Origin: a virus
Reading direction: 5' to 3' (one strand)
DNA: 43,791 nucleotides
IMG/VR virus record: IMGVR_UViG_3300035128_000007
The notes under the pieces were generated by a model, which was given only the letters and a program-made list of their open reading frames with translations, was not told where the DNA came from and searched no databases. The translations under genes and the position numbers were made by a program. Within the stretch, counting starts at the first letter, position 1. The number at the start of each line of letters is the position of its first letter. Below are positions 6,546 to 32,003 of this stretch, piece after piece.

Positions 6546-6562
6546 ACATTTCAGTCTTTTCG

Positions 6563-7758: not shown

Positions 7759-7777
7759 CGTCTTTTCGGTCTATGTT

Positions 7778-7806: not shown

Positions 7807-7847
7807 TCATTCACCATTTGTCTCCATCCTGGCTCTCTACCCATACA

Positions 7848-8012: not shown

Positions 8013-8033
8013 AAAACCTCCAACCATAGTTTC

Positions 8034-9038: not shown

Positions 9039-9042
9039 TCAT

Positions 9043-9162
9043 CTAGTCATCGTCTCGAGGATTCAATTTATTCATGGCGATACTCCAGAATACTGCAAAC
9101 GCCATAGCCCCACTGATCCACACCATGAGCCAAAATACTAAGTGCTCGAGCCATTCAATCAT
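9043..9162 (-). CDS. Small single-TM peptide (39 aa), hand-called
   Basis: MIEWLEHLVFWLMVWISGAMAFAVFWSIAMNKLNPRDDD. The ATG overlaps the upstream stop (ATGA). It ends 5 nt before the C5-MTase ATG. Confidence 0.35.
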   Translation of the reverse strand: MIEWLEHLVFWLMVWISGAMAFAVFWSIAMNKLNPRDDD

Positions 9163-9362
9163 GCCTTTTCCTCTACTATTCCATATTCACTATAATCATG
9201 CTTGCAACGATACCGGGTATTATCTTGCCTATTAAGGTATTTTACCGATTTACTGCAATGTGGTTCAGCGCTGTCTATCGATAGATACCGTTTGTCATGT
9301 GGCACAAACTCATGCTTTTGTTCGTTCTTGTTTGCCCAGAGTAAAATGTTTGAATTTGCCAT
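9159..9362 (-). CDS. Hypothetical protein (67 aa from second ATG)
   Basis: Track ORF 9159..9377. I preferred ATG 9362 because GGAGG lies 4 nt upstream. MANSNILLWANKNEQKHEFVPHDKRYLSIDSAEPHCSK... The segment is AT-rich. Confidence 0.5.
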   Translation of the reverse strand: MANSNILLWANKNEQKHEFVPHDKRYLSIDSAEPHCSKSVKYLNRQDNTRYRCKHDYSEYGIVEEKA

Positions 9363-9424
9363 ATTTCCTCCAACCATAGTTTCATCTAGACCTTTGCTGG
9401 ACCCCTATGGGACCAAGCGGCTTC

Positions 9425-9453
9425 ATTACCGCCCTGTCTCTACAGGCTGTTAA
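9425..9453 (-). promoter_or_regulatory. Candidate promoter for the small-ORF/C5-MTase cassette
   Basis: Minus strand TTAACA (9453-9448), 17 nt, GGTAAT (9430-9425). It lies about 50-65 nt upstream of the 9377/9362 starts. Confidence 0.3.
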
Positions 9454-9479
9454 TATTAAGCCTTAGAGAAAATTGGTCA

Positions 9480-9713
9480 TCAGCAAAGATACTGTCCAAA
9501 TCGGATGTCATTCCTTAACACGCCGACACGTCCCCTGGTCCAGCTACACTGGTTTTTCCTGGCGCCGGTCTCAAGCGCCTCTGGGCTGATGTACTGATAG
9601 GCCGGCGCGTTATCGTAGCCGTGGGGATACCCGTCACGGGGAATAAAGGCTTGACGCGGTTCGAGAGATTCGGTATGGTAGGATTCTCTCGGGAAGCGGC
9701 GGCAAACCATCAT
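9480..9713 (-). CDS. Hypothetical protein (77 aa), uncertain
   Basis: Track ORF MMVCRRFPRESYHTESLEPRQAFIPRDGYPHGYDNAPAYQY... with a weak SD (GGGAA). No homology recognised. Its start region is covered by the candidate antisense RNA. Confidence 0.35.
   Translation of the reverse strand: MMVCRRFPRESYHTESLEPRQAFIPRDGYPHGYDNAPAYQYISPEALETGARKNQCSWTRGRVGVLRNDIRFGQYLC
9651..9679 (+). promoter_or_regulatory. Candidate plus-strand promoter (antisense to the leftward operon)
   Basis: TTGACG (9651-9656), 17 nt, TATGGT (9674-9679). It is followed about 45 nt later by a plus-strand intrinsic terminator. Confidence 0.35.
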
Positions 9714-9754
9714 TCCCGAACAAAAGGCTCATCCATCGCGGGTGGGCCTTTTGT
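9686..9754 (+). ncRNA. Candidate ~70-nt antisense sRNA (two stem-loops plus U-tract)
   Basis: The predicted transcript has SL1 UCGGGAA(9689-9695)/UUCCCGA(9713-9719). A second hairpin pairs GGCUCAUCC(9726-9734) with GGGUGGGCC(9740-9748), fully paired with 2 G-U, then UUUUGU. It is antisense to the SD and AUGAUG of ORF 9480..9713. Confidence 0.35.
9722..9754. terminator. Hairpin flanked by A-run and T-run (bidirectional-type terminator; better paired on plus-strand RNA)
   Basis: aaaaGGCTCATCCatcgcGGGTGGGCCttttgt. On the minus-strand RNA the same stem carries two C-A mismatches. It lies 13 nt downstream of the stop of gene 9767..10072. Confidence 0.45.
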
Positions 9755-9766
9755 CTGTGCGGAGCA

Positions 9767-10072
9767 CTATACGTCATTTGGGAGGCTGGCGTCAACTGGC
9801 TCCTGGTCCTCCTTCTCTGGTGACCACCGACCGTCTATCTTCAGCAATGCGTGTGCCCACGGAAGACACCACTTGACCATGCTCCCTGTGGCAGTCGTAA
9901 TTTTCCTTGAGAATTTCACTATGATCCTGCCATCTGGTATATCATCTCCTGGAACAGGCCGAATGACCTCGCCAGACTTGCCCACGTCTGCTGGATTGCC
10001 TGTTTTTACCAGAATAACATGATCACCGGGACCCAGTAGCTTGCCGTTGATGTCTCTTGCCTCAGCGCTCAT
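9767..10072 (-). CDS. Hypothetical protein (101 aa; SH3/KOW-like beta-rich pattern)
   Basis: I preferred the internal ATG 10072 (AGGAGAAGacgag upstream) over the track start 10123. MSAEARDINGKLLGPGDHVILVKTGNPADVGKSGEVIRPV... Confidence 0.55.
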   Translation of the reverse strand: MSAEARDINGKLLGPGDHVILVKTGNPADVGKSGEVIRPVPGDDIPDGRIIVKFSRKITTATGSMVKWCLPWAHALLKIDGRWSPEKEDQEPVDASLPNDV

Positions 10073-10298
10073 CTCGTCTTCTCCTATAGCCACTTTCAGA
10101 CAGAACATCACCAGGGTAAACAACTTCCCAATCCTGGATGATATCGCTATTCCTAATTGAGGAAGGCGTTACTCCATGAGGAGCTGGGACAATGCACAAA
10201 TAGTCGTCATTAATACAATAGGCAGCTCCTGATCCACGCCATGTTACAGGTCGAAACCACTTCCCATTTGCAGCGATTAGAGCTTCATTCAGGGTCAT
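10062..10298 (-). CDS. DUF2829-like (Tad2-like) small protein
   Basis: MTLNEALIAANGKWFRPVTWRGSGAAYCI...SDIIQDWEVV matches my recollection of the DUF2829 pattern (M.F.EAL.A...GK...R..W.G.G ... D.L.EDWE.V). 78 aa. Confidence 0.45.
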   Translation of the reverse strand: MTLNEALIAANGKWFRPVTWRGSGAAYCINDDYLCIVPAPHGVTPSSIRNSDIIQDWEVVYPGDVLSESGYRRRRDER

Positions 10299-10375
10299 TT
10301 ATCTGGCCCAGTATGCCGCGGGCAGGTAGTCCAACACACGATCAGCGCGATGATAGCTATTGCTAGGTACTTCAT
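10295..10375 (-). CDS. 26-aa lipoprotein-signal-like micro-ORF, hand-called
   Basis: MKYLAIAIIALIVCWTTCPRHTGPDK. It has ATGA overlaps with both neighbours (10372-10375 and 10295-10298). LIVC is only a loose lipobox. Confidence 0.25.
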   Translation of the reverse strand: MKYLAIAIIALIVCWTTCPRHTGPDK

Positions 10376-10605
10376 GTCAACGCAGTCCTATGATATGCAT
10401 TAGCAGCCTCCATAAAGCTATCGCCATCATAAATATTTTGGTCTCCAAGAGTTACTTTATATCCTCCCGATAAACGGACCATGAATCTAAGTCTATCAAG
10501 ATATACACCATTGCCCTTTCTTGACACGCTCTCAGAAGCATATTCGATAAATTTTTCAGAGGCCCACATATCAAATTGCTTCTTTTTTATTATATTAATC
10601 GTCAT
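10372..10605 (-). CDS. Hypothetical protein (77 aa)
   Basis: The internal ATG 10605 was chosen to limit overlap with the upstream gene. MTINIIKKKQFDMWASEKFIEYASESVSRKGNGVYLDRLRFMVRLSGGYKV... AT-rich. Confidence 0.5.
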   Translation of the reverse strand: MTINIIKKKQFDMWASEKFIEYASESVSRKGNGVYLDRLRFMVRLSGGYKVTLGDQNIYDGDSFMEAANAYHRTALT

Positions 10606-11128
10606 TATCAAAATACTCCAGGTCGTCAAGAATAGCATCAAGGACGGATGCAATTCGCGAACTAGTGATCTCAGATAATTCACCAAGCACCATCCGCTTT
10701 AGCTCGAGATCACTGATCTGCGGGCGCTCGCTTTCACGGAGCTTCTGAAGCTCTGGCTTGATATCTTCCCAGTCTGGAAGTTCGGACTCTTCATCAGGCT
10801 CCGTAAATGGCACATATTTGAACGATTCCTCGATAACCTGTGCGCCTGTTGCGTCTGTTGCGTCTGCAAGTTGTGGCAATTCATTGGGGTGCTTATATGC
10901 ACCCGCAGACCCTGTGTCGTTATACTGGTCTTTCAGCGTCCAGCTAAACGGAGGCAACTCGCCATAATTGGTCGCCTCAACCTCGCCCCGCTCCTTCAAC
11001 TTGCTTACAGCCTTTGATACCTTGTTGGTGGGCTCGTCCAGATGCTCTGCTATCTCCTTCACGGTAGCCACGCTCAAATATCCCAGGGCATCACGTGCTT
11101 TCTGTAACATGCTTTTTTCAGTTTCCAT
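10595..11128 (-). CDS. Winged-helix DNA-binding protein with acidic C-terminal half
   Basis: METEKSMLQKARDALGYLSVATVKEIAEHLDEPTNKVSKAVSKLKERGEVE is a MarR/wHTH-like N-terminus. The C-terminus is D/E-rich. ATG 11128 overlaps the upstream stop (TAATG). Confidence 0.6.
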   Translation of the reverse strand: METEKSMLQKARDALGYLSVATVKEIAEHLDEPTNKVSKAVSKLKERGEVEATNYGELPPFSWTLKDQYNDTGSAGAYKHPNELPQLADATDATGAQVIEESFKYVPFTEPDEESELPDWEDIKPELQKLRESERPQISDLELKRMVLGELSEITSSRIASVLDAILDDLEYFDNDD

Positions 11129-11394
11129 TATTCCTTCTCCAACAAACAAACTTTAGGCCAATAAAGTCTTGACTTACGATTGCCTGGTTGCGTTACCAGG
11201 ACAATATAACTTTCATGGTCCCTGCCTAATCCACCGCCATAAGCACTGGTTGCGTTATATTTAATAATAAGCTCGTCTTCATTAGGCATTAATCCAGTCC
11301 ATATAACTTCCACGATAATGCCTCGTTTCGTCTTTTCATATCCTCCTGATTTGCTCGTCCATTTGACATGGTCACCTGCCTTAAATTTTCCCAT
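11128..11394 (-). CDS. Hypothetical protein (Tudor/SH3-like beta-barrel pattern)
   Basis: 88 aa. MGKFKAGDHVKWTSKSGGYEKTKRGIIVEVI... resembles the small Tudor-like domain family (DUF2945-like, from memory). Confidence 0.5.
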   Translation of the reverse strand: MGKFKAGDHVKWTSKSGGYEKTKRGIIVEVIWTGLMPNEDELIIKYNATSAYGGGLGRDHESYIVLVTQPGNRKSRLYWPKVCLLEKE

Positions 11395-11423
11395 TTCTTT
11401 CTGCCTCTATTTCTAACATTTGC

Positions 11424-11651
11424 TTAACGGCATTTTCTATTCCGATTCCTGAGTGACTCGTAATACTCAACAACACCAGGAGTAGTAATAAGAGATTGCA
11501 ACATATCAAACATTTCTACAGATATTTCTACCCCTATAGACTGCCAGCCATTTCTACTAAAGAACCATGTTCCAGCAGCAAATAATCCGCGATCTTCAGG
11601 CGCGCCAACACCAACTGAAATATACTGCTTGCCATTTCGTTTAGTAATCAT
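11424..11651 (-). CDS. Hypothetical protein
   Basis: 75-aa track ORF, co-directional with its neighbours, with an 11-nt overlap with the upstream gene. AT-rich. Confidence 0.5.
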   Translation of the reverse strand: MITKRNGKQYISVGVGAPEDRGLFAAGTWFFSRNGWQSIGVEISVEMFDMLQSLITTPGVVEYYESLRNRNRKCR

Positions 11652-11856
11652 GTTTTGGCTTCCTCACAGGCATAGACACGTGGCGTTCTGGTATTGAGAC
11701 CTCATAATCAACCATATATTTGTTATTTTCCGCGCGGTGCGAACCAATGCGTTCACCAATGATTCGAATCTTTTTCGCCAATTGCCTTGCTTCCACAATA
11801 TTCTCCGCCTTTATGACCGCATGTCCTTTTATCTCAACTTCATACGTTGGCATCAT
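11641..11856 (-). CDS. Hypothetical protein
   Basis: 71-aa track ORF. Its start overlaps the RusA stop (ATGA-type overlap at 11853-11856). Confidence 0.5.
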   Translation of the reverse strand: MMPTYEVEIKGHAVIKAENIVEARQLAKKIRIIGERIGSHRAENNKYMVDYEVSIPERHVSMPVRKPKHDY

Positions 11857-16429: not shown

Positions 16430-16633
16430 ATGAAGACCACCTTAACAAACAACGAAATGGTTAAATTTTTTTACGAGACCGACGGAGGAGATTCCGGATA
16501 CATAAACGCTAAAAATATCGATACCGCCAGGGAAATCTTTTTCGGCGAACATCCGGATATAGATCCGCAGTGCGCCGGCCTGTGGTCTCCAGATGACAGT
16601 GAATATCCAGATGATATTGGAGACAGACCATGA
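16430..16633 (+). CDS. Small strongly acidic early protein (67 aa)
   Basis: MKTTLTNNEMVKFFYETDGGDSGYINAKNIDTAREIFFGEHPDIDPQCAGLWSPDDSEYPDDIGDRP has about 15 D/E against about 5 K/R by my count. I preferred ATG 16430 over the track's GTG 16382, which lies inside the promoter. Confidence 0.6.
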   Translation: MKTTLTNNEMVKFFYETDGGDSGYINAKNIDTAREIFFGEHPDIDPQCAGLWSPDDSEYPDDIGDRP

Positions 16634-17022
16634 CACGCCTACTAACAGCACTTATCGCCGCATCCATCCTGCTGGGATGCGCCACCCAGAACGTCGCCGA
16701 CCTGCGGGCCCGCACAGACAACCAAGCATCATGGACAGTCTCCGCCCCTGTGCGGGATGTCTATCGTACATATAAGGAACACATCAGGGCTGGGCTCCCA
16801 CAAGGGTTCCTCTGGAGCGGGCGCCCAGTGGTCTCTGGAGACTTCTACGGAGATTCTGGCGAGTTCACCGTACGTCTCCAAGGAAACGCTATCGGATCCC
16901 CTGTATACCTATACACCACAATGGTTGAGGCCCCCGGCGGGACAGACGTCACTGTCTCATGGTCCAGAGGATGGAAATCGACAGCTATGGAGCTGCGCGG
17001 GCTTGATATTGCTGGAGGTTAA
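16630..17022 (+). CDS. Lipoprotein (lipobox LLGC)
   Basis: MTRLLTALIAASILLG|CATQNV is a classical signal peptidase II signal. 130 aa. ATGA overlap with the upstream gene. Confidence 0.75.
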   Translation: MTRLLTALIAASILLGCATQNVADLRARTDNQASWTVSAPVRDVYRTYKEHIRAGLPQGFLWSGRPVVSGDFYGDSGEFTVRLQGNAIGSPVYLYTTMVEAPGGTDVTVSWSRGWKSTAMELRGLDIAGG

Positions 17023-17792: not shown

Positions 17793-18090
17793 TCGACTAG
17801 ACAGCACTAACTGCGATGGCGACGGCTCCGGCTACGGCTCCGGCTACGGCGGCGGCGACGGCTCCGGCTACGGCTCCGGCTACGGCGGCGGCGACGGCTC
17901 CGGCTACGGCTCCGGCTACGGCTCCGGCTACGGCTCCGGCTCCGGCTACGGCTCCGGCGACGGCTTCGGCTCCGGCTTCGGCTCCGGCTTCGGCTCCGGC
18001 GGCTCCGGCTACGGCTACGGCTCTGGCTACGGCTCCGGCTTCGGCTCCGGCGACGGCTACGGCTTCGGCGACGGCTACGGCAACGGCTAG
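17785..18090 (+). CDS. Gly/Ser/Tyr(Phe)-repeat low-complexity protein (101 aa)
   Basis: MSNRLDSTNC then 91 residues built only from G,S,Y,F,D,N (DGSGYGSGYGGG x2, GSGYG..., GSGFG...). The ATG overlaps the upstream stop (ATGA). Third codon positions are almost all C. Confidence 0.55.
   Translation: MSNRLDSTNCDGDGSGYGSGYGGGDGSGYGSGYGGGDGSGYGSGYGSGYGSGSGYGSGDGFGSGFGSGFGSGGSGYGYGSGYGSGFGSGDGYGFGDGYGNG
17815..18087 (+). repeat. GC-rich tandem repeat array (6/12/36-nt periodicity)
   Basis: gacggctccggctacggctccggctacggcggcggc occurs twice in tandem (17821-17856 and 17857-17892). It is followed by degenerate ggctccggctac/ggcttc units. One 60-nt line hand-counts to about 80% G+C. Confidence 0.9.
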
Positions 18091-18094
18091 ATTT

Positions 18095-18301
18095 GTGACA
18101 TGGGACGAGATGCTCGACTCAGCCTTGGCTTTACAGGCTGCTATCGAGAGACAGATCCAAGAGATTCAGGAACCGCGGGAAGGTGTCCGTCACACGACAG
18201 ACCAGGCCGTTGCGCAGCTCATCGCTATACGGCGCTGGGAAATGCTTAATAAAGCAGTGTCTGGCGTAATTAGACAACTGGAGGATATTTGTGATGAATG
18301 A
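18095..18301 (+). CDS. Small helical protein; start uncertain (GTG 18095 or ATG 18110), frame continuous with the +1 frame of the repeat
   Basis: (V)TWDEMLDSALALQAAIERQIQEIQEPREGVRHTTDQAVAQLIAIRRWEMLNKAVSGVIRQLEDICDE. This is the tail of track ORF 17816..18301. No clear SD. Confidence 0.45.
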   Translation: MTWDEMLDSALALQAAIERQIQEIQEPREGVRHTTDQAVAQLIAIRRWEMLNKAVSGVIRQLEDICDE

Positions 18302-21580: not shown

Positions 21581-21973
21581 ATGGAATATGAATCAAGATG
21601 GGAACTTGGTCAGATTGAAAGGCTTATAAACCCAACATTCAAGAGAATATTGGATGATGTTATAGATGAATGTATTGAATACTCTATTGAAATAGACGGC
21701 AGTATATGGATATCAGAAAAAGGCGAACTAGGTTCCCCAGAAGAACCAGTTATAACATTTATAGGCCCGCCTAAACCAGATAGCAAAAGAACTATATCGA
21801 AGGCTGGCACAATATTAAACGATTGCTATATACTTGAGGTTCCTTTGAGAAAGGCCATACTAGACGCGGTAGACGAATCAAATTATGATGGGCTAGTCGA
21901 ATTTACTGCATACATGGAAACCGTCATCAATGAATTGAGAGCCAAAAGGGATTCTTCTAAGCCGCAATCTTAA
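21581..21973 (+). CDS. Hypothetical protein (130 aa)
   Basis: GGAGGtataaacaa ATG 21581. I preferred this internal start over the track's 21539. AT-rich. It is the last gene of the rightward operon. Confidence 0.55.
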   Translation: MEYESRWELGQIERLINPTFKRILDDVIDECIEYSIEIDGSIWISEKGELGSPEEPVITFIGPPKPDSKRTISKAGTILNDCYILEVPLRKAILDAVDESNYDGLVEFTAYMETVINELRAKRDSSKPQS

Positions 21974-22263
21974 ACAGTTAAAACATCAACAATCGAAAAA
22001 GAAAACGTGATCACATAGATCTGTCCAGTATCAAGAGTAATTTTCACCTCTGCAGCATACTGTGTACCAGCAGTCCCTCCGGACACCCAGAACAGTACAG
22101 AGTCGTCCGTGTGACTGTTTGTGCCCAGAGTCAGACCGGCCTGGAGACTAACGACATGAGACGAAATGACAGACCCAGACGGTATCCAGCTCGAGAAGTC
22201 CACCGGATAATCTAGATCGTCATCCTCATGTTGCTGGATCTCTAGTTGCGCATGATATTCCAT
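21970..22263 (-). CDS. Fibre-tail adaptor-like protein
   Basis: DDDLDYPVDFSSWIPSGSVISS...VLFWVSGGTAGTQYAAEVKITLDTGQIYVITFSFSIV fits the pattern (D.DY.fDws.wL..gd.I... sGG..G..Y.v...i.T..G) of proteins annotated as phage fibre-tail adaptors. This is recollection. Confidence 0.45.
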   Translation of the reverse strand: MEYHAQLEIQQHEDDDLDYPVDFSSWIPSGSVISSHVVSLQAGLTLGTNSHTDDSVLFWVSGGTAGTQYAAEVKITLDTGQIYVITFSFSIVDVLTV

Positions 22264-22265
22264 AT

Positions 22266-22640
22266 CTATGTATCATCGTGAGTTGTTGGGATATCCCATG
22301 AGGCGAATGTCCTGGACTCTGTCTCCGTCATTAAAACACCGCTTATCTCGTGCGCAGCCTTGAGCGTGGTTTCGCCGTCGTCCACAAGACATAGGTGAGT
22401 CCCAGTCCCGGTATCTGTCGCCGTTATATCCTTCGATGATACTGTGAGCTTTCGCCCGTTACCGCCACTCGCATCTGCTAACGTGAAATCTCCACCTGCC
22501 ATAGCGACATATCCAAGCGTTACGCCAGAAACCGCTGCGTAGTTTGCCGGTTTCGCCGAGCAGATATGCATCTGGTCTGCATTAGCTATGTCTGAAAGCA
22601 TCAAATCAATACTGTCTGGATCTACATAATCTGTAGCCAT
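22266..22640 (-). CDS. Hypothetical structural-region protein
   Basis: 124-aa track ORF in the distal tail/fibre region. Confidence 0.55.
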   Translation of the reverse strand: MATDYVDPDSIDLMLSDIANADQMHICSAKPANYAAVSGVTLGYVAMAGGDFTLADASGGNGRKLTVSSKDITATDTGTGTHLCLVDDGETTLKAAHEISGVLMTETESRTFASWDIPTTHDDT

Positions 22641-22648: not shown

Positions 22649-23833
22649 CTATACGACCGTAATGGTGCGCGGATTCGTCGGCACCGATATTGCCCTGTCT
22701 GCTGATAGGACTGTGATTGCTCTTGAGGATGATGGCACTGTGATCAACCTCGGGTGATTAGTGAAGTCTGCATCAACAAGAGGGTCCGTAAACCCTATGT
22801 TGATGGGCATATCATCTGCCTGGAACGGAGTATGGCCTCCAGACATCGATATAGTGATCGGCATGTCTCCAGTGGAGACGGTAATAGCCGGATCAGACAT
22901 CGATATAGTGACCGGCATATCTCCTGGGGAGACTGTAATAGCCGGATCTGTAAACCCTATAGATATCGCAAGATCTGCAATATCAACACTGGCCGTCTCT
23001 ATTGAGAGAGCAGAGATTAAAGGTACATCTACGCTCGCAATAATGTTAAGTGCGAACTGCTCGCCAGCTTCGACAATTACGCTGAATGCTTCGTCGTGTG
23101 CAGCGTACTTGCCGACCTCGTCGTATACATCAAGGTCATCAACCTTCGTCAGGGTGTCATTCGGGTCATTGATATCGAAAACACGAAGACCCGACTCGCT
23201 ATGTGCCCCCTCTTCAAATTTGGCTTTTACATTATATGTACCTGGCGTTACATCGAACCTTATCTGAATAGTGTCGTCAGGGTACGGATGACACTGCGCT
23301 TGATATAACGATGAATCAGTTGTCCCGGACACAGGCGTCGGGAAAAACGCTACTGTTACTTCTTCAGTGCCATCCTTTGTTATTCTATCGTGATCATGAG
23401 CCCACCAATAATCTTGGGCTGAATCCAGGTAGTCTTGAGGAAATCCTGACGCTCCTTCCCCAAAGTTCATTCGAATCGGCAGGACATATCCAACGCCGCC
23501 AGACGTATTCGAATAACCGCTTAGCGAATTATGTGCGCTTACTCGGTAGTAATACCTCCCACCTATATCTAGTCCAGAATCCTCATAACTGTATGGACTA
23601 GTACCAGCTTGTATTGTGTCTACAGATGACCAGCTTTCTTGGTCTAATGACCTCTCCAGCAGGAAGTCGTCAACGCCTAAGTCATCATGCGTCCAGTGAA
23701 TTGTTACGGCGGAAGTAGATTCAGTAACAACTTTGGTGACGACCGGATCGTTTGGCGGGTCGCCCTCCTCCCATATAGCACCAGCCCCTTCTGGTTCTAT
23801 CCCTTCTATCGGTACATAGTCTTCTAGTCCCAT
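22649..23833 (-). CDS. FN3 plus malectin-like carbohydrate-binding protein with C-terminal repeats
   Basis: AVTIHWTHDD...YYYRVSAHNSLSGYS is FN3-like. SSLYQAQCH...GTYNVKAKFEEGAHSESGLRVFDIN...LDVYDEVGKYAAHDEAF resembles the malectin domain. Then DPAITVS(P/T)GDMP(V/I)TISMS x2 and R.I(T/S)V x4. Confidence 0.6.
   Translation of the reverse strand: MGLEDYVPIEGIEPEGAGAIWEEGDPPNDPVVTKVVTESTSAVTIHWTHDDLGVDDFLLERSLDQESWSSVDTIQAGTSPYSYEDSGLDIGGRYYYRVSAHNSLSGYSNTSGGVGYVLPIRMNFGEGASGFPQDYLDSAQDYWWAHDHDRITKDGTEEVTVAFFPTPVSGTTDSSLYQAQCHPYPDDTIQIRFDVTPGTYNVKAKFEEGAHSESGLRVFDINDPNDTLTKVDDLDVYDEVGKYAAHDEAFSVIVEAGEQFALNIIASVDVPLISALSIETASVDIADLAISIGFTDPAITVSPGDMPVTISMSDPAITVSTGDMPITISMSGGHTPFQADDMPINIGFTDPLVDADFTNHPRLITVPSSSRAITVLSADRAISVPTNPRTITVV
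22841..22948 (-). repeat. Tandem 54-nt repeat x2 inside gene 22649..23833
   Basis: agacatcgatatagtgatcggcatgtctccagtggagacggtaatagccggatc against agacatcgatatagtgaccggcatatctcctggggagactgtaatagccggatc (a few mismatches). Confidence 0.85.
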
Positions 23834-25416
23834 TAGTTATGTCCGATAGAAGGGCTATTAGTTATGTTGTCCGCAGGGCAATTGCTGTCTTTATGAGGGG
23901 ACGTGCTGTGGCTTACTATATCATTTATGGTTGCCTGTTCTGTGCCAGTCAAAAGTTTTCTGTAATATATGTAATTGCTGACGTCTGCATCCACAACATC
24001 ACACCCAGCTCCGCCGTCACAGTAGTCATTGCTGCCCGTAGTCCATTGCGATGACGACCCATAGAACGCGTTGTAATCTGCTGTGACATTACTTCCTGCG
24101 GAGCCATTTTTATCGATGCCGTCAACGATCAGGTTACACCTGTAATCCTGATCATCTGCTCCTAGCTTCAACCAGTAATCTGTAGTATTGGAAAAGGTGT
24201 TAAAATACACCTCTGCTTTATCACAACTATCCATGTTTGCCATGTACCCTGTCCCGTCTCCTACATTCTCGTTGTTATTGAATAGATTGCCCCATATTGA
24301 GATATTGTTCGGATTGGTTGTGCCGCCACATGACACCCCTATAGGGGCGTCTTCTATAATGTTTCCACCAACGAGAATATAATCGACACTTGACGCCCCC
24401 TCATTAAATGCAATAGCTTCGCCATTTGAACCGCTCGACCCGCATGACGTATTAGAGTCCTTAAACCCCCATATCCTATTGTGGATTATCTTTGCTGGCG
24501 ATTCGCTTGTCCCACCTCCTTCCATGTTTACGGCATTCTTACTTGATGAGTACAAACCAGATGCGTTAGGGTCTCCGTTAGAATCACAATACAAGCCTGT
24601 GGTCACGTATATGTCGTTATCATATGCTGCAAACCCAGGGACACTTGAGTCATCATTAACTATGATCGAATCTCCAGCGCAGTCATATATCTCATTCCTG
24701 ACGATATGAATATTCTCGCTTGTACCTCCCGTTACTGACAGACAAGGAGCGTCCTCTGTTGGGACTTCTTTCGTCTCCCTTATTACCGAGTTCTGTACGG
24801 TTGTGTCCGCTGAAGTGTCAATCTCAACGCAAGCCCTACTGTTCCCTGCCGTTGTCGCGTCGCAGTTCTCCACCAAAACACGATCTATTAGATGGCCATC
24901 TCCAAATAACTTTACCCTGTGATCCTGGTCTCCACTGTCTCCATCTATAGTCAGTCGATGAACCACCCAATTGTCCCCATCTATCTTTAATCCCGTGATC
25001 CTTGCCTCTTCTGCTGTCTGAAGATCTACAGGATGCGTAGTTCCCACTCCAGACAGCCTGATCCATCTGGGGTCAGAACTTGTGCCACTCGCTGTAATGT
25101 CATACTCTTCATGCCCAGTGTAATCGTCCGGGTCATAACAGAATATCCTGTCAGCGTCTACTCCGTTCAGCTCATCTTCTATCTCGCTTTCCGTCCATGT
25201 ATCATCAAATGTCTGATCACACGAAGCCCCATACCCACTTACGGTAGTTATAACAATCTCATACACCACCTCCCCAGGTGGGGTTCCCCCGCCCTCGGTA
25301 TACTCTAGGGCTCCATAACTCCCAGCCCTAAGATTCCCTGAGATGTCCATGTCAAGAATTCCGCCATAAGCGGAAAATGACACTGCCAGGAGAAGACTAC
25401 CAATTAGCCGTATCAT
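23833..25416 (-). CDS. Right-handed beta-helix (pectate-lyase-fold-like) protein with signal-peptide-like N-terminus
   Basis: MIRLIGSLLLAVSFSAYG-GILD. Repeated N..I/V..N-type turns (VQNSVIRE, IVRNEIYDC, YDNDIYVT, IIHNRIWG). About 14 Cys. Paralogous to 25397..27271. Confidence 0.65.
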   Translation of the reverse strand: MIRLIGSLLLAVSFSAYGGILDMDISGNLRAGSYGALEYTEGGGTPPGEVVYEIVITTVSGYGASCDQTFDDTWTESEIEDELNGVDADRIFCYDPDDYTGHEEYDITASGTSSDPRWIRLSGVGTTHPVDLQTAEEARITGLKIDGDNWVVHRLTIDGDSGDQDHRVKLFGDGHLIDRVLVENCDATTAGNSRACVEIDTSADTTVQNSVIRETKEVPTEDAPCLSVTGGTSENIHIVRNEIYDCAGDSIIVNDDSSVPGFAAYDNDIYVTTGLYCDSNGDPNASGLYSSSKNAVNMEGGGTSESPAKIIHNRIWGFKDSNTSCGSSGSNGEAIAFNEGASSVDYILVGGNIIEDAPIGVSCGGTTNPNNISIWGNLFNNNENVGDGTGYMANMDSCDKAEVYFNTFSNTTDYWLKLGADDQDYRCNLIVDGIDKNGSAGSNVTADYNAFYGSSSQWTTGSNDYCDGGAGCDVVDADVSNYIYYRKLLTGTEQATINDIVSHSTSPHKDSNCPADNITNSPSIGHN

Positions 25417-27271
25417 TATTTATCCCAATGGATGAACGACTACCAAGCGAACTAGGACACTGTTGATACTCGGGAGCGCCTACACCAATTGCTGCATATG
25501 GTATTGTGAATTGTTCCGGCGTCGTTCTTAGCTTCCTCCAGAATGTGAACGGACCGCGTATAGCCTCCCAGGTGATGTCCCCGTCTTGAAAGGTACAATC
25601 CAGAGTATTGCAAGCAGATACTGATTGATCGCTTGTTGTTCCACTATCCTGGGCCTCGTACAGGAAGCACTCTACATCAGTAGGATCATCACAATCCGTA
25701 TATGGGCCGAATCTGGCTATTTGCCCGGCAGAGTATGTATCGCTATCGCCCAATGTTCTAGTTACAACATCTTCGTCCACATTGTCTGCGCTCTCGTTGA
25801 AAGTGAACAACGTTGAGTTATAGAACGCGTTATGGTTTGCAATGTCTGTCCCTTCAGCGCTGCCTGACTGCTTAGGGCCTGCATCTATTAACACATTGCA
25901 TCTAACGTCGTTATACCCGGTATTTAGCCCAGGGAAACTTGTCTCGTTAGATCCGTTGCCTGCCTCAATAAGAGTGTTCAGATACCACTCGTTATTCTCT
26001 TGATTGCCACCACCTGGATCATTCCACTGATGCAGAACATGAGCATATTTAGTCCCTTCCCATGTTCTGTAATCAAAAAAGATATTCCCTATGTAACTAT
26101 CATGAGAAGCCATATTATTGATCGCAATCGGACCGCCCATCAATATGTTGCCTGTTACCATGTTGTATGGCCTATTAGAATATCCTCCCATAGTTTGTCC
26201 GCTATCGCCGTTACAACATAGTGAAGATCCTGCCCACTGATGTCGTCCCCACAAACGGTTGTGCTTTATGATGACAGGACCTGACGATGTGCCAGTTGTT
26301 TTCCTGGAGAGCGGCCCCTCTGTCGCATCACAACTCCCATTAGGATCCATAGTGTTGTCACTACAGTCAGCATAGAGCCTGCTCGTCACATATAGATCGT
26401 TATTCTCTACAACTATATTCTCTTGAGTTGGGTTATGGTTCCCACCAAGTTGTACCGGGTGAGCAACATAGTCATATATTTCATTGTTTACCACAAAATT
26501 ATTGTCACTGTCGTATGGGTCAATAGCTACACTCTCCTCTGATGGTTTAGGACCGTTCCACCGAAATACAGAGTTCTGAATCACATTATGTCCGACAGAT
26601 GTTCCGTTAGGAGTGTCATCTGCCCACCCACTATAGCGTGCCTCTGTATCTGGCTTTCCGTCTCCTCCGATCGCTAGTGTTTCCTCACCCTCGACGAGTA
26701 TCCTGTTGAAAATGTGATGCCCACCTTCGCCGGATCCTAGTCGTCTATTCCCGTAGGGCTGATTTGTACCTGTATGGCCAAAGGGTATTCTGTGAATAAT
26801 CCAGTAGTCCCCATAGATATCCAGTCTGTCTATCAGACAGTGCTTTGACTTTGCCAAATCCCAGGGATCCTCGTCTCCGGTTGGGTTAGCCGGATCATAA
26901 TACTTGAAGACATTATATCCATTAGTGCCAGACGTCCCGTCTCCACTATCCTCTAAGGCCAGAACATTCCCTGATTTATTGCTAGTGAATGATGTGTAGT
27001 CCCCCGGCTCTATACAGATCACATGCTTGCCAGACAAAGTTCCGGCGGATGGCCAGTCGCCATCGGATTCTTTGATGGTGTAATCACACGCCTTGGCTAC
27101 ATAGAATTCCACGTCCACATCGCACTTAGGGCCTCCGTCTCGACACTCATAATCAGATACGTACCCATTCAGGTCAGGGTCGCCAAGAGCCGCATTAACA
27201 CTAGGCACCCAAGCAAACAAAAACATCAAAGCTAAATAATTACTCACTATTGTCAGTATGGAATATTGCAT
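25397..27271 (-). CDS. Right-handed beta-helix protein, paralog, with hydrophobic signal-like N-terminus
   Basis: MQYSILTIVSNYLALMFLFAWVPSVNA-ALGD. VIQNSVF, VVNNEIYDY, VENNDLYVT, IIKHNRLWG. Many Cys in close pairs. Collinear with the 527-aa neighbour (NEIYD, ND.YVT, HNR.WG, RCN, NAFY, RKL.T..EQ). Confidence 0.65.
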   Translation of the reverse strand: MQYSILTIVSNYLALMFLFAWVPSVNAALGDPDLNGYVSDYECRDGGPKCDVDVEFYVAKACDYTIKESDGDWPSAGTLSGKHVICIEPGDYTSFTSNKSGNVLALEDSGDGTSGTNGYNVFKYYDPANPTGDEDPWDLAKSKHCLIDRLDIYGDYWIIHRIPFGHTGTNQPYGNRRLGSGEGGHHIFNRILVEGEETLAIGGDGKPDTEARYSGWADDTPNGTSVGHNVIQNSVFRWNGPKPSEESVAIDPYDSDNNFVVNNEIYDYVAHPVQLGGNHNPTQENIVVENNDLYVTSRLYADCSDNTMDPNGSCDATEGPLSRKTTGTSSGPVIIKHNRLWGRHQWAGSSLCCNGDSGQTMGGYSNRPYNMVTGNILMGGPIAINNMASHDSYIGNIFFDYRTWEGTKYAHVLHQWNDPGGGNQENNEWYLNTLIEAGNGSNETSFPGLNTGYNDVRCNVLIDAGPKQSGSAEGTDIANHNAFYNSTLFTFNESADNVDEDVVTRTLGDSDTYSAGQIARFGPYTDCDDPTDVECFLYEAQDSGTTSDQSVSACNTLDCTFQDGDITWEAIRGPFTFWRKLRTTPEQFTIPYAAIGVGAPEYQQCPSSLGSRSSIGINNDTANW

Positions 27272-27891
27272 ATCAGCGAAAACTGTGCGTCAACAAGCGT
27301 ATCAACAGCGTTATACTTAATGCTCACGTAAATTGTATTAGTCCCACTTCTAGTGACGCCAACACTTACTATTGGGCTATTCGTACCAGTTGCGATCGGA
27401 ATGCCATTTATATTATCTGACCCTGTTGTGATAGTATAATTACCCGTCGCTGTTTTTTGTGCAGTCCATCCTGTAGGTGCTACGCCAACCACACCACCGC
27501 TAGGTGATACCATTATTTGCCTGTAAGGTGCCTTCTTATATTCAGGGTCAGAACTAAAACCAGTTGATACCAATATGTAGCCTTCTGCCCCATCAACAGA
27601 TCCCATCGCCTCGCCTAAGCCACCTCCAACAAGAAGTGAACCCTTACCCACTAAACTCCTGCCAGTGCCTCCGTATTCAGATGCCAGCACGCCAAGAAGA
27701 TCATACCACGTAGACGTCCCCTCATTATATATAACTAGGCGATTCTCGCCGACACTATACCCTATCGCCTTGTCCGGAATATTTGTGGATCCCTGCGAGA
27801 ACATCTGTGCAGCGTCTACGTCTCTCGCCTTCAGGTCATCGAGAATCTGCGTGTACAGCGTATCTATTGTCGGTTCGTCCCAATCTGCCAT
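27253..27891 (-). CDS. Tail fibre protein (212 aa)
   Basis: MADWDEPTIDTLYTQILDDLKARDVDAAQMF is a typical tail-fibre N-terminal opening, followed by a G/S/T-rich C-terminus. The ATG at 27891 abuts the J-like stop. Confidence 0.6.
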   Translation of the reverse strand: MADWDEPTIDTLYTQILDDLKARDVDAAQMFSQGSTNIPDKAIGYSVGENRLVIYNEGTSTWYDLLGVLASEYGGTGRSLVGKGSLLVGGGLGEAMGSVDGAEGYILVSTGFSSDPEYKKAPYRQIMVSPSGGVVGVAPTGWTAQKTATGNYTITTGSDNINGIPIATGTNSPIVSVGVTRSGTNTIYVSIKYNAVDTLVDAQFSLICNIPY

Positions 27892-30800
27892 TAGTACCCC
27901 TCCACATCCCAACTTATCAGGTTGGTCTGCCTTGTTCCTGTTTCATCGAATACTAGCGCCTTGAAGCTCGTTGGATTTGGTGTATCCGTAAAATCCACCA
28001 CGACATACCTTGGCGAAGTAGAATCAACAACCGTCCCAATTGGCGCTTTCGTGACATCCGAGAACGTCTTGTTGAAATTTATCGTTGTTCCTCCGCTGTC
28101 TCCAGAATTGCACGTCGCCATTCCTGAGTCACGCTTCTTTTTGATGTCCAGCAATACGTTAATTTTATGGACACGAACTATGTCATCATTCCCAGACCCC
28201 GTGAACGCGAGAGCAACCTTTACATACTGAAACGTCTGTGCAAACCCACTTTTTACTCCTGCCGACATATCTGTCCATGAGTCTCCAGAGTTTTCCTTGT
28301 AGGATATTGTCGCAACAACGTTTGTACTCCCTGTGATCTGTGTCTCCAGACCGTCTAATGATATGGTCGCTGCTGCTATCACAGACCCATAGTCGAACTC
28401 TTCCGAATACGCGCCTGTGTCCAACGTCGGCTCGAGATAGTATGGATATCCTGCTGTTATCTGATCGTCTGGGTTAGTCCATGAGTTGTCGTCGAAATGC
28501 TCTTCAAATGTCTCTGTCGTATCGACACACCCAATTAGATAGCCATCAGATTCTATTGTATTTGTGTGAGTCCCAGTCCAGTCAGTTTGCCATGCCTTGA
28601 CAAGAACATAATCAGGCGGCTCATTAACTGTTATAGATATCGGGGATATGACGCCAGGATTATCGTAGGTATCAATTCCACGAACCCAAAACGTATAAGT
28701 CCCGGATTCGCGCAAGAAGAAGGTGGCAAACGTCCCATTTACCTTTAGTGTTTCATCCGGGCTTTGGTAGTCATCTCCTCTGAATATTTCATACCCAACA
28801 ACAGGGAATGATCCTTGCGACGCGGACATGAAAAGGAGAACATTGTTATCGATCACCCTATAGGTTATGGAAGCAGCCCTCGGTCCCTCTATTACAAGAA
28901 TCGCATGAGTAGCATTATCTGATGCTCTCTTTGCGTCATGTGCCTTCACCCAGAAATTATGCGTTCCTGCTGTTAGCTGTCTGTATACCGCCTCTGTTGT
29001 AAGTCCTTGCGCTATTGTCACACCATCTTCCCACGAGGCCCCATACCTGACCTCGTAAAACTCGACATCTACATCCGGTATAGGATTCCACCGCAGCCTG
29101 ATGTTCTGATTCCATATTTCAGCGTAGAAGCCTGTTACATCCGATGGAGGCGCCAGCTTCCCAAGTACATTATATGTCTTGATGAATGTGGCGCTTGCAA
29201 GCGTTACTGCTACCGCCCACGGCTTAGCTTCTATCTGGAGCACATCACCCTGCTGATATCTGCCGCTCCAGTCAGTGCCACGAATCTCTCCGTAATCCCG
29301 CCAGGATTCGTCGTTTCGCTTGATACGGAGCCTCACTCCTATGGCATTCTCTATATCAAAATAGAGATTGCATTCAGACTGCCCAGCCTTGCTCAGCAAT
29401 ACCTCTGTGACATCGATGCCGTTGACAGCAGGTACCGGGCCGTAGTACTCGTTTTGTGGCGGCTCCCATGTAGGATTATATTCGGAATCGTAGAACTGGT
29501 TTACTTCATCAGTCGCGACAATCCGTATTTGTCTCTCATTTACCGGACTAAGATCGATGATCTTCGCATTCTTGCCAGGGGTTGTTGATGGCTCGTAAAA
29601 CCACACATAGTCGTATGAACTGTTATATACGTCCTGGTCCGGTAGCAACGGAGGGTTAGTCTGTAGCCTGATGAGCGATCGATTAACGCTCCCACTATAG
29701 TTATACACTTGGTAATGGTCATACGTACCATTCGGCTGTCGCAGCATAACCCAGTGGTCCTGACCTTCTGTGAATGGGACATCCCTATCAAGGGTTATGA
29801 TCGATACTCCGTTTATCGTGGATCCAGCTAACAGCCTCCCAGAGTACCCCCACTGCGTCAGATCATGAGACAACCTTATAACATCCCCTCGCGTGCAAAC
29901 CATTCCCTCTAGGTCAGTCTCCCATGATATTCGCCGGCGCCTATAGTATTGCTCTGCCGCGATTAGGTTTGCGTGGCGGTTTGCTACTGCTTTCGATGTT
30001 ACCCCAGCCAGATCTTTCCTTGCTACGTTCCCTGTTCCTTGAGCATTAGGCACATCAGCTCGGATAGTTTGAGCCTGGTAGTCATTTGCTGCGTCCAGGT
30101 AATTACACTCTATTGCGTCTACACCAGGGGCGGACAGATACTTAACCGTGAAGCTCCCTGCGACTATGTTCGGCATACCATACATCGCTACCGCTGGCAG
30201 TCTTTCCTCGTCCCATATCACCCCGAGCTTGCCGCTGGCCCATGTATATGCGCCCCTGCCGGCCATGGCGATAGTTGTCAACATTGACTCTACAGGCTCG
30301 GTCTTATCAAATACATAATCGAACGTCCATCCCTTCTCGTCACACCATGCCGCAAAGTCTATTATTGAGTCATAGTCTATTCTTGATGGGTGTAGGCCGC
30401 CGCCATAAAGCCTTCTGCCATCAGTATGACTTTTGCCCAAAGCGACATTCAGGAATGCCCATGCTGGGTTAGAGGTATACAACCTATTCCATACTTCATC
30501 AACGAAAACTGGTATTTTTGCGCTGGCTATACACGATAGTGTGTCCACTACACCAGAAATCTGCTCGCTGGCCCTGATGATGAGTCCAAGTCTTCTTTGC
30601 CCTGTATAATCGGACTCGTCACGCTGATATGAACGCAGAACACTCCATGTGAATGACGATTGATATCTGTCGTTGTCATCCTCCGGTGAATTGCGTCTTA
30701 GCCTTACCTCATACTGGCCGGCCTCTACATATCGTTGCCGAGATACGCGTACTGCCTTGGTTGTGTTGTTTGATATTATGATTGAATCGATCGACGCATA

Positions 30801-32003
30801 ATATCTCCGTGTTGGCGTTGGATCATCTCCAGCGGCATCAAAATGTCTATACGTCCAAGTTACAGTATGCGTAGCAGACGCTGGAGCGAAATAATCATAA
30901 CCCTCATCCGTGATCGTCCCCCACTCTTCACCTTCTGTGTGCTCGTTCGGGTCAGTATCTCCATACGCCACCTGAACCCAAAAAGCGCCTCCAGGCAATC
31001 CAGGTTTCCCTTCAGGGGTATACCCGGCAGACCAATAGTAGTCGTGGAACAACTCCTCGGTATCGTAGAAAAAGGACGTCCACTCCGCTGCTCCTACCTT
31101 CCTGTACTCTCCGTCGAACTTTACGTTGTGGTAATCGAGATCTCCATTATCAGCAACGTGATATAGTGTCCCTACTATGTCTATTGCGAGTATTCTTGTA
31201 TCATCGCTCGTCGTTCTGGTAACCCAACCAGCCGCAGCATTCAACTCGGATCCTACATCAAGTGTATCGACGTTCCCCGCGAACTTTGAAAGCCTGCCAT
31301 TGTAGTCGCTCCATTCAACCTCGACATCCTTGTAGCTGCTTAGCGGCGTGTCACCAATCTTGAAGTCTGTAAAAGTTGCCTCCAAAGAAAGACCCATACC
31401 ATAAACCACGAAAAGGTATAAATCGCCATTCCTGATCTCAGTATATGGCTTCATGGCTAAATCAGGGACAAACTTGTGCGTCCCATAGATCAACGGCATC
31501 GGCTGATTCAGGCGGATTCGATTGCGCGCACCACTAAGATTATATGTTGGGGACGTTTCGTCCTGTTGGCTGGATAATGCTGTTGCTTTGTGTCCTGGAG
31601 GGATGATCGAATTAACTAATGCATAACCGCCAACAACGGTTAACGCCGCCACCCCTGCTGTTGCCGCCTGGCTTGCCCAATAGCCGCCGACATACCCACC
31701 TAGATATGGAGCGGCCACAACAACAGCGAGGGACAGAATTACCCTTAACGGGTCTGAGTCTCCGCCTCCTTCCACAATTGCTCTAATAGCTACCATGTCT
31801 CCATGAGAGACAATCAACCCCATGTCTTCCGTGACATTCCCATTTACAGACACCACAAACTGACCGGCATCCACATCAATATGGCACCGAGACAAGACTG
31901 AGCCTATAGTCTCCCTAGGTAATATCTCTATTTCCCGTACTACTCTCCCTTCTTGCGACAAAACTGGATGGGGACAGTGCGTGACCTGTGCAGTCATCTC
32001 CAC
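27891..32003 (-). CDS. Tail tip/host-specificity protein: lambda gpI-like N-terminus fused to gpJ-like body with FN3 repeats
   Basis: The first ~190 aa are a small domain, then a Gly-rich hydrophobic stretch (LSLAVVVAAPYLGGYVGGYWASQAATAGVAALTVVGGYALV), then SPTYNLSGARN...PMPLIYG, as in gpI. Later NPAWAFLNVALGKSH...IDFAAWCDEKG resembles the gpJ core. 1370 aa. Confidence 0.75.
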   Translation of the reverse strand: MEMTAQVTHCPHPVLSQEGRVVREIEILPRETIGSVLSRCHIDVDAGQFVVSVNGNVTEDMGLIVSHGDMVAIRAIVEGGGDSDPLRVILSLAVVVAAPYLGGYVGGYWASQAATAGVAALTVVGGYALVNSIIPPGHKATALSSQQDETSPTYNLSGARNRIRLNQPMPLIYGTHKFVPDLAMKPYTEIRNGDLYLFVVYGMGLSLEATFTDFKIGDTPLSSYKDVEVEWSDYNGRLSKFAGNVDTLDVGSELNAAAGWVTRTTSDDTRILAIDIVGTLYHVADNGDLDYHNVKFDGEYRKVGAAEWTSFFYDTEELFHDYYWSAGYTPEGKPGLPGGAFWVQVAYGDTDPNEHTEGEEWGTITDEGYDYFAPASATHTVTWTYRHFDAAGDDPTPTRRYYASIDSIIISNNTTKAVRVSRQRYVEAGQYEVRLRRNSPEDDNDRYQSSFTWSVLRSYQRDESDYTGQRRLGLIIRASEQISGVVDTLSCIASAKIPVFVDEVWNRLYTSNPAWAFLNVALGKSHTDGRRLYGGGLHPSRIDYDSIIDFAAWCDEKGWTFDYVFDKTEPVESMLTTIAMAGRGAYTWASGKLGVIWDEERLPAVAMYGMPNIVAGSFTVKYLSAPGVDAIECNYLDAANDYQAQTIRADVPNAQGTGNVARKDLAGVTSKAVANRHANLIAAEQYYRRRRISWETDLEGMVCTRGDVIRLSHDLTQWGYSGRLLAGSTINGVSIITLDRDVPFTEGQDHWVMLRQPNGTYDHYQVYNYSGSVNRSLIRLQTNPPLLPDQDVYNSSYDYVWFYEPSTTPGKNAKIIDLSPVNERQIRIVATDEVNQFYDSEYNPTWEPPQNEYYGPVPAVNGIDVTEVLLSKAGQSECNLYFDIENAIGVRLRIKRNDESWRDYGEIRGTDWSGRYQQGDVLQIEAKPWAVAVTLASATFIKTYNVLGKLAPPSDVTGFYAEIWNQNIRLRWNPIPDVDVEFYEVRYGASWEDGVTIAQGLTTEAVYRQLTAGTHNFWVKAHDAKRASDNATHAILVIEGPRAASITYRVIDNNVLLFMSASQGSFPVVGYEIFRGDDYQSPDETLKVNGTFATFFLRESGTYTFWVRGIDTYDNPGVISPISITVNEPPDYVLVKAWQTDWTGTHTNTIESDGYLIGCVDTTETFEEHFDDNSWTNPDDQITAGYPYYLEPTLDTGAYSEEFDYGSVIAAATISLDGLETQITGSTNVVATISYKENSGDSWTDMSAGVKSGFAQTFQYVKVALAFTGSGNDDIVRVHKINVLLDIKKKRDSGMATCNSGDSGGTTINFNKTFSDVTKAPIGTVVDSTSPRYVVVDFTDTPNPTSFKALVFDETGTRQTNLISWDVEGY

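Follow-up and report, generated by a model that had tools for sequence, protein, structure and literature searches.

Phage depolymerases are normally described as tailspikes that fold in the cytoplasm, or as surplus copies of such tailspikes. The virus contig IMGVR_UViG_3300035128_000007 (43,791 nucleotides, the whole of which we call the window) raises the question of whether enzymes of this kind can leave the infected cell by another route. In the tail-fibre region of the window, two overlapping open reading frames (ORFs) on the minus strand, at 27271..25397 and 25416..23833, encode cysteine-rich proteins of 624 and 527 amino acids (aa), both of which begin with a hydrophobic segment of export type. 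An earlier note on this DNA had drawn attention to the pair. Both ORFs lie where it placed them, the motifs that it quoted are all collinear between the two products, and every cysteine cluster that it listed is present. The evidence gathered here points to a route other than the tailspike one. With restrained confidence in the chain as a whole, we favour the reading that the two proteins are exported, disulfide-bonded, polysaccharide-active β-helix enzymes, derived from bacterial exopolysaccharide (EPS) loci and released free at lysis.

Structure prediction agrees with the β-helix fold that had been proposed for the pair. AlphaFold2 models built from family alignments (pLDDT 88.6 and pTM 0.91 for the 624-aa protein; pLDDT 84.1 and pTM 0.87 for the 527-aa protein) have regular short strands throughout and classify as right-handed parallel β-helices, and we are confident of this predicted fold for both proteins. 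Neither protein gave a significant match in Pfam, PHROGs or NCBIfam, or in sequence and profile searches of the PDB. Against the Pfam family Beta_helix (PF13229), the 624-aa protein scores 15.9 bits, compared with a gathering cut-off of 25.9, and the 527-aa protein has no match; a few homologues carry a precomputed match to this family. The two proteins are paralogues, with 28% identity over 370 aa (BLASTP, E 7e-28), and to that extent the description of them as collinear paralogues holds. They fall in different subfamilies, however, and the cellular genes nearest to each are 40-44% identical to it. Since each is nearer to cellular genes than to its partner, a recent tandem duplication is ruled out.

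The relatives of both proteins lead to bacterial EPS loci. A word-indexed search returned 95 homologues of the 624-aa protein (best 40% identical, coverage 94-99%) and 25 of the 527-aa protein, of which P0092, encoded in a cellular EPS locus, is the best (42% identity). With the family defined by alignment A1, an exhaustive profile search of 1.84 billion representatives gave 576 clusters at E ≤ 1e-30 and 1890 at E ≤ 1e-3, counted at 50% identity. The family profile scores the 624-aa protein (P0001; 25397..27271, minus strand) at 586 bits and the 527-aa protein (P0096; 23833..25416, minus strand) at 416 bits, and the motifs NNEIYD, ENNDxY, HNRxWG, RCN and NAFY are present. By homology, the first belongs to a subfamily of exported EPS-locus proteins with the signature AD.NGYTAQYECRAGGP.CNVDV and the second to the subfamily of P0092, P0097 and the copy in the phage contig L011. 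Three other members hold two or three tandem copies of the whole β-helix domain (P0116, 2092 aa; P0117, 1435 aa; P0118, 1335 aa) and may be natural fusions or gene-call read-throughs.

Cellular members lie inside one conserved Wzy-type EPS locus in 10 of the 10 informative loci, that is, those with usable flanks. These are from Sulfurifustis variabilis (L001), metagenomes and a metagenome-assembled genome (MAG) (L002-L005), an Oligoflexia MAG (L014), Sulfuricaulis (L015), a Sulfurifustaceae MAG (L016), a Saprospiraceae MAG (L018) and a further metagenome (L020). Their neighbours are GT2/GT4 glycosyltransferases, Wzy, UDP-glucose dehydrogenase and a heparinase II/III-like protein, together with an asparagine-synthase-type amidotransferase, a methyltransferase and a GFO/IDH oxidoreductase. 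A search of reference genomes with a narrower alignment found six loci. Because every bacterial locus with usable flanks is a Wzy-dependent EPS cluster, the family reads as an exported accessory protein of the EPS pathway. The window pair does not lie in an EPS locus, and a phage tail operon without EPS genes is a new genomic context for the family. The best explanation is that the phage lineage acquired both genes from bacterial EPS loci, where the family would serve as a periplasmic or extracytoplasmic accessory enzyme.

Export appears to be a property of the family as a whole. By our signal-peptide heuristic, 191 of the 201 members with an intact N-terminus (~95%) have a signal-peptide-like N-terminus. 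In almost every member, one or two basic residues lead into a hydrophobic core and an AxA site, and the conserved mature N-terminus comes immediately after. Both window proteins have a hydrophobic core of at least 11 residues and small residues at positions -3/-1 (VNA/A and AYG/G, where the slash marks the predicted cleavage site), in line with the export-type N-termini that the earlier note had described. The predicted Sec signal peptides comprise residues 1-27 of the 624-aa protein (MQYSILTIVSNYLALMFLFAWVPSVNA/A; 27191..27271, minus strand) and residues 1-18 of the 527-aa protein (MIRLIGSLLLAVSFSAYG/G; 25363..25416, minus strand). In the AlphaFold2 models, the low-confidence N-termini span residues 1-11 and 16-28 of the former (pLDDT <50) and residues 13-53 of the latter. 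A twin-arginine motif is in neither window protein (starts MQYS and MIR), and RRx## occurs in the first 25 residues of 0 of 115 members. Among the 47 minus-strand calls of the window, the heuristic flags four; besides the pair these are a small membrane protein and a call that is clearly a false positive.

The hydrophobic segments have different kinds of support in the two proteins. For the 624-aa protein, some of the cellular members have signal peptides, for example YFAALLMFFVAWPSFAA, that can be aligned with the segment YLALMFLFAWVPSVNA, and because of this homology a start downstream of that segment is less likely. In the 527-aa protein, the relatives P0097, L011 and L012 keep hydrophobic N-termini although their sequences differ, and the methionine M23 is not conserved in P0097 or L011. 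The earlier note had named true start codons downstream of the hydrophobic segments as a finding that would speak against it. That objection is weakened by the signal homology of the one protein and by the relatives of the other that lack M23, although in-frame starts at V22 and M23 do exist. On this sequence evidence, both proteins are probably exported.

The cysteine content fits an extracytoplasmic location. The two proteins contain 29 cysteines in 1151 residues (2.52%), compared with 43 in 6989 (0.62%) for 26 other late or virion proteins of the phage (Fisher p = 4e-8), which substantiates the richness reported earlier. Co-occurrence of cysteine columns among 111 aligned members, in the numbering of the 624-aa protein, gives seven pairs: C43-C50 (phi 0.85), C303-C314 (phi 0.98), C527-C535 (phi 0.98), C62-C86 (in 96% and 99% of members), C458-C605 (95% and 94%), C554-C559 and the vicinal C352-C353. 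Since the columns co-occur in pairs, the seven are likely disulfides. The median cysteine count across the family is 13. Of the earlier proposal of disulfide-bonded extracytoplasmic depolymerases, the first part is upheld by the Sec-signal family, the paired cysteines, the EPS loci and the persistence in phages; the soluble depolymerase activity is less well placed, as the fold matches are generic and no PL6 or AlgG motif is present.

Other phages carry the family as well. Look-ups in IMG/VR and metagenomes found six further phage or phage-like contigs with members, five of them with export signals. In L006 (JGI 3300010430, Ga0118733_100033237, 1997-11324), three consecutive paralogues (611, 586 and 574 aa) all have signal peptides, and the final two match the window pair in their order. 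The 621-aa copy of L008 contains 3.4% cysteine and starts with a signal peptide or lipobox; an fn3 protein and the lysis genes come after it. Signal peptides are also present in the copies of L010 and L012, the latter of 959 aa. L011 belongs to a phage related to that of the window (J 52% identical, the 212-aa-type fibre protein 38%). Its 527-type gene, 42% identical, directly follows the fibre gene, which is the same slot as in the window, and the N-terminus of the product is long, hydrophobic and unrelated in sequence to that of the window protein. The comparison shows a predicted export-type N-terminus that was kept through the divergence of the phage lineage while its sequence turned over, as selection for a physical property predicts. 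The nearest neighbours of each phage copy are mostly cellular-type sequences, not other phage copies. Given this, and given that the window genes belong to different subfamilies, repeated capture or exchange of family genes by phages seems implied.

The sole genuinely signal-less copy is that of L009 (IMGVR_UViG_3300048573_000087, 9995-11692). It starts with M-ADANGYTALYE, which is exactly the mature N-terminus, and has a stop codon directly before the ATG and a strong GGAG nine nucleotides (nt) upstream. The gene adjoins an upstream 'tail appendage' gene (PHROG 8094, E 5.5e-114), and its product has 8 cysteines, with one of the seven cysteine pairs intact and six broken or missing. In this copy, an exported enzyme may have been turned into one that folds in the cytoplasm and might be virion-borne, which would then suggest a route from the one to the other. 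A general rule by which loss of the signal peptide brings loss of cysteines was rejected. Two other members that had seemed signal-less are artefacts: P0182 is cut short by a contig end, with ...NRLFACTVLLLAASPAMA/ADINGY in the frame ahead of it, and the start of P0199 was called wrongly, with MRFLILLLFLFSSSAMS/AQYPRADVNGY in the frame ahead of that start. In addition, P0028 is low in cysteine with its signal in place, so that L009 is the only case.

The fold places the proteins, in general terms, among carbohydrate-active β-helices. Foldseek searches with both models gave significant matches that are all β-helix lyases, hydrolases, epimerases or tailspikes (TM 0.25-0.47). They include PL6 alginate lyases, chondroitinase B, Pel9A, AlgG/AlgE epimerases, DFA-IIIase, GH87 and GH110 enzymes and the phage tailspikes Pam1, HK620, Det7 and 9NA; for the 527-aa model, the top matches are PL6 lyases and AlgE epimerases (TM 0.3-0.45). 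In the PDB profile search, too, a PL6 lyase came first, although its E of 1.7 is not significant. Family members share the invariant residues C86, Q232, E264, N291, D292, N338 and R339 and the near-invariant E289, E318 and K324, and the polar residues among these suggest a putative active site on one face of the helix. A uronate-containing EPS would be a reasonable substrate by analogy, given the UDP-glucose dehydrogenase in the cellular loci.

The route by which the enzymes would reach their substrate depends on the host. J homologues in INPHARED, all below 30% identity, occur only in phages of (Gram-negative) Proteobacteria, and a small M15 peptidase (gene 6754-7131) serves as the endolysin. 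For these two reasons the host is probably diderm, and in a diderm host a Sec signal alone reaches only the periplasm. Late translation would be coupled to that of the tail genes, as the gene layout shows. The chains would then be transported by Sec over the inner membrane and cleaved by signal peptidase I after VNA27 and AYG18, positions that family-wide conservation suggests. Oxidative folding in the periplasm would give the 624-aa protein about seven disulfides, and the periplasmic location would separate both proteins from virion assembly in the cytoplasm. Lysis would free the enzymes to cut or modify EPS or capsule round neighbouring cells, and, while still in the periplasm of the infected cell, they might already act on nascent polymer. 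In either case, access to new hosts would become easier for the progeny. Lysis makes a further secretion system unnecessary, and with it the link to a pseudopilin-like gene and type II secretion (T2SS) on which the earlier note had speculated. That link also found nothing to rest on in the sequence, as a six-frame scan of the window for the prepilin motif G[FMILV][TS][LI][ILVM]E was empty and no pilin-like match appeared among the ~27 window ORFs run through Pfam or PHROGs. In line with free release, neither protein has a recognisable phage-specific N-terminal anchor domain, a Pfam tail domain or a PHROG tail-family match, and from the mature N-terminus onward the 624-aa protein is collinear with cellular exported members.

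Several observations weigh against exported enzymes that are released free. Both genes are flanked by bona fide tail and fibre genes, and the occupant of their slot differs among related phages, as with receptor-binding cassettes. Each ORF has an alternative in-frame start that would give a signal-less product, a GTG at V22 of the 624-aa ORF and an ATG at M23 of the 527-aa ORF, the latter with GGCGGA nine nt upstream. Basic residues are lacking from the n-region of the 624-aa signal peptide, and no Shine-Dalgarno sequence precedes its ATG; several other overlapping genes of this operon likewise have no such sequence. The signal-peptide heuristic is crude and flags about one in ten control proteins, mostly as false positives. 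P0028 combines a signal peptide with only 8 cysteines, and the link between signal loss and cysteine loss is one protein, that of L009. As for activity, the Foldseek matches are generic. The motif GGE[STA][ILV]R[ILV]G, which we take to be conserved in the catalytic region of PL6 enzymes, is present in 0 of 115 members (fold TM to PL6 0.37-0.46), and the AlgG/AlgE epimerase motif DPH[DE] is present in 1 of 115, which is neither window protein. Some of these points speak for virion tailspikes or side fibres, mounted on the baseplate via the 212-aa protein encoded just upstream or a Gp77-like adaptor. The hydrophobic N-termini would then be bypassed by internal initiation at V22 and M23, or be remnants, or act as an assembly or anchoring helix. 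The position of the genes between gpJ and a fibre-tail-adaptor-like gene, their translational coupling to tail genes, the variable slot in the manner of receptor-binding proteins, the fold shared with the Pam1, HK620, Det7 and 9NA tailspikes and the signal-less homologue beside a tail-appendage gene in L009 all suit such a role. Nevertheless, the export signal is retained in five of the six other phage copies, including one at 52% identity in J, with hydrophobicity kept while the sequence turned over. The 624-aa segment is homologous to genuine cellular signal peptides, M23 is missing in P0097 and L011, and neither an anchor nor a PHROG tail match is found. In addition, about seven conserved cysteine pairs are implausible for cytoplasmic folding, in a phage whose virion proteins have 0.62% cysteine. 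We regard virion tailspikes, the main rival, as doubtful though worth serious attention. It is quite improbable that proteins matured in the periplasm dock after lysis onto released virions from outside, for example via the 212-aa, fn3/Malectin or Gp77-like protein. If this were true, tail assembly would have an extracellular final step, and the phage would mount host-derived, oxidised enzymes that are unable to fold in the cytoplasm.

If the proteins are exported, their main job could still lie in the periplasm of the infected cell, where nascent EPS would be their target for cleavage or modification at the Wzy/Wza assembly line. They would thereby shut down or remodel the capsule of that cell, so that progeny are not trapped on debris or superinfection is excluded, and free release would be secondary. 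The cellular homologues in Wzy-type EPS loci beside a heparinase II/III-like protein, which recall AlgG/AlgL, VexL and WceF, and the delivery of a Sec signal to the diderm periplasm alone favour this view. Nothing separates periplasmic action from release at lysis, however, and the two are not exclusive. Late expression coupled to the tail genes would leave little time for remodelling before lysis, and two or three subfamily members per phage (in the window and L006) look more like a wider substrate range on neighbouring cells, so we find a mainly periplasmic job distinctly unlikely. We give little credence to the idea that the proteins modify the polymer, for example as uronate C5-epimerase-like enzymes in the way that AlgG relates to AlgL, or bind EPS without catalysis. 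AlgG and AlgE epimerases are among the fold matches, and the cellular loci already hold a heparinase II/III-like protein and UDP-glucose dehydrogenase, as in the alginate paradigm of epimerase plus lyase. The near absence of DPH[DE] argues against an epimerase, which would also be of no obvious benefit to a lytic phage, and the invariant E264, D292, N338 and R339, with the near-invariant E289, E318 and K324, resemble an active site. Even less probable are lysogenic-conversion 'moron' genes, expressed from a prophage to alter the EPS of the lysogen. The classic moron site is downstream of J (lom/stf), where lambda lom lies, and here too host-derived genes with signal peptides are found just downstream of J. 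An ERF recombinase and a divergent early region suggest that the window phage may be temperate, but no integrase was identified in the annotated parts of the window. Moreover, each start of the pair lies 19-20 nt inside the gene before it, and the next gene downstream overlaps the pair by 1 nt. Promoter-like sites in the region are below chance (13 observed, 21.5 expected), an operon scan found no intergenic terminator or internal promoter signal around the two genes, and GC content across the pair has no discontinuity. From the overlapping starts, the paucity of promoter-like sites and the lack of an intergenic terminator it follows that the pair is an integral part of the late tail operon and not an autonomous moron.

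Known systems share parts of the favoured reading, that of EPS-derived enzymes exported and then freed by lysis. The best analogue of the cellular members is WceF of Pantoea stewartii, a β-helix glycanase in the stewartan EPS cluster with a tailspike-like fold and a Tat signal, which is exported folded and acts on the EPS of its own cell, affecting chain length (PMC7949094). Like them, WceF is a β-helix encoded in a Wzy-type EPS cluster and has an N-terminal export signal. In contrast to its Tat signal, the proteins described here have Sec-type signals and many paired cysteines, and WceF is bacterial, whereas the window pair lies in a phage tail operon. No sequence similarity to WceF was detected, and it is not among the top 50 listed fold matches. 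AlgG and AlgL are periplasmic accessory enzymes with signal peptides, encoded among the biosynthetic genes, whose substrate is the polymer as it is being made; AlgG is a β-helix. VexL, cited in PMC7949094 (ref. 10), is an accessory enzyme of the same kind and also a β-helix. The family resembles these proteins in its signal peptide, its encoding within the locus and, for AlgG and VexL, its fold, and AlgG is among the fold matches. It differs in that DPH[DE] is lacking in the window proteins, there is no significant sequence relationship and the fold match is generic (TM ~0.3-0.45).

Among phage proteins, the virion tailspikes of P22, HK620, Det7, 9NA and the cyanophage Pam1 share with the pair the β-helix, the place in a tail-fibre module, a likely polysaccharide substrate and exchange between phages. 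Classical tailspikes have a particle-binding N-terminus and no export signal and fold in the cytoplasm, whereas the window proteins have predicted signal peptides, ~2.5% cysteine and no recognisable anchor. Known free depolymerases are generally thought to be surplus, unincorporated cytoplasmic protein. Free phage depolymerase activity in halos sets a precedent (PMC6116005) for what is proposed here, a diffusible enzyme that is freed at lysis and strips the capsule or EPS of neighbours. A precedent for a Sec-exported late phage protein is given by the Sec-exported or signal-arrest-release (SAR) endolysins fOg44 Lys44 and P1 Lyz, which use the host Sec system, build up outside the cytoplasm during assembly and act at or after lysis (PMC6116005). 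These endolysins degrade peptidoglycan and belong to the lysis cassette, whereas the window pair lies in the tail operon of a phage with a separate M15 endolysin. A literature search, with subscription journals outside its coverage, found no description of depolymerase-like proteins with Sec signals from tail operons, or of this family.

If the favoured reading is true, the pair would represent a recurrent class of exported phage 'public-good' enzymes. It would also give a first functional handle on a large unnamed family (~576 clusters or more) of Wzy-type EPS loci, and it would warn annotators that not every β-helix gene in a tail module need encode a virion tailspike or a receptor-binding protein. 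Biotechnology would gain a set of naturally secretion-competent enzymes that degrade EPS or biofilm.

The neighbours of the pair confirm its place in a tail-fibre region. The late operon reads, in order, J, the 212/219-aa gene, the 624-aa gene, the 527-aa gene, the 394-aa fn3 + Malectin gene, a 124-aa gene and a 97-aa Gp77-like gene. The gpJ-like central tail fibre or tip attachment protein (1370 aa; 27891..32003, minus strand) matches PHROG 31 'central tail fiber J' (E 7.5e-118) and the Pfam families Phage-tail_3 and FNIII-A_GpJ. Its residues 56-177 also match PHROG 32 'tail assembly protein' (gpI-like, E 7.5e-8), which suggests a fused I-J architecture. The 212/219-aa protein directly upstream of the 624-aa gene (27253..27891, minus strand) has no family match and a 211-aa counterpart in L011 with 38% identity; it may be a short fibre or adaptor. 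The 624-aa start codon lies inside the end of this gene, with a 19-nt overlap, and the 527-aa start codon inside the end of the 624-aa gene, with a 20-nt overlap and GGGA ~9 nt upstream. The start of the 394-aa gene (22649..23833, minus strand) overlaps the 527-aa stop by 1 nt. The product has a carbohydrate-binding Malectin domain (Pfam, E 2.4e-10) and a weak fn3 match, no signal peptide and 0.3% cysteine, and is likely a virion-associated, glycan-binding fibre component. The operon ends at 21970..22640 (minus strand) with the 124-aa protein, which has no assigned function, and the 97-aa protein, which matches Pfam Gp77 (podophage GP4 fibre-tail adaptor; PF23148, E 5.9e-16).

An fn3-like protein without a signal peptide directly follows the β-helix gene or genes in three loci, at 22649-23833 (minus strand) in the window, 11870-12715 in L008 and 8847-9443 in L006, where the assignment in L008 and L006 is a reading of the sequence only. 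This follower may be a partner conserved alongside the β-helix genes, or else a virion component that binds glycans. Besides its paralogues, L006 encodes three unrelated proteins (330, 306 and 321 aa) whose N-termini also resemble signal peptides, which makes an unusually dense run of predicted exports.

The window is a novel siphovirus-type genome, which encodes terminase, portal, protease, capsid, a tail module with a tape-measure chaperone and the gpJ-like fibre. A megablast of the tail-fibre region and tblastn of the 624-aa and 212-aa proteins against INPHARED gave no matches. Genes for the small terminase, an HNH endonuclease, the large terminase, portal and protease lie at 384-5881 (minus strand) and run off the low end, and the capsid gene is at the high end (42752-43618, minus strand); from this arrangement, the 43.8-kb contig seems to be a complete genome that is circularly permuted. 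The same 624-aa protein, with identical sequence and among the same neighbouring genes, is encoded on another contig, of 42.5 kb (Logan SRR11696381).

The lysis region (6255-7427, minus strand) encodes a 50-aa transmembrane (TM) protein, the M15 endolysin, a 74-aa TM protein and a 96-aa i-spanin-like protein with an N-terminal TM segment and a coiled coil; no o-spanin lipobox was recognised within it. In the divergent early block, a 130-aa protein (16630-17022, plus strand) without a Pfam or PHROG match carries a classic lipoprotein signal, MTRLLTALIAASILLGC/ATQ, and might, like T5 Llp or Cor, be a lipoprotein that blocks a receptor or excludes superinfecting phages. A 161-aa ORF (17816-18301, plus strand) opens with ~45 tandem copies of the 6-nt unit GGCTAC/GGCTCC (repeat 17818-18089), which encode a low-complexity N-terminal region of the form (A-T-A-P/A)n.

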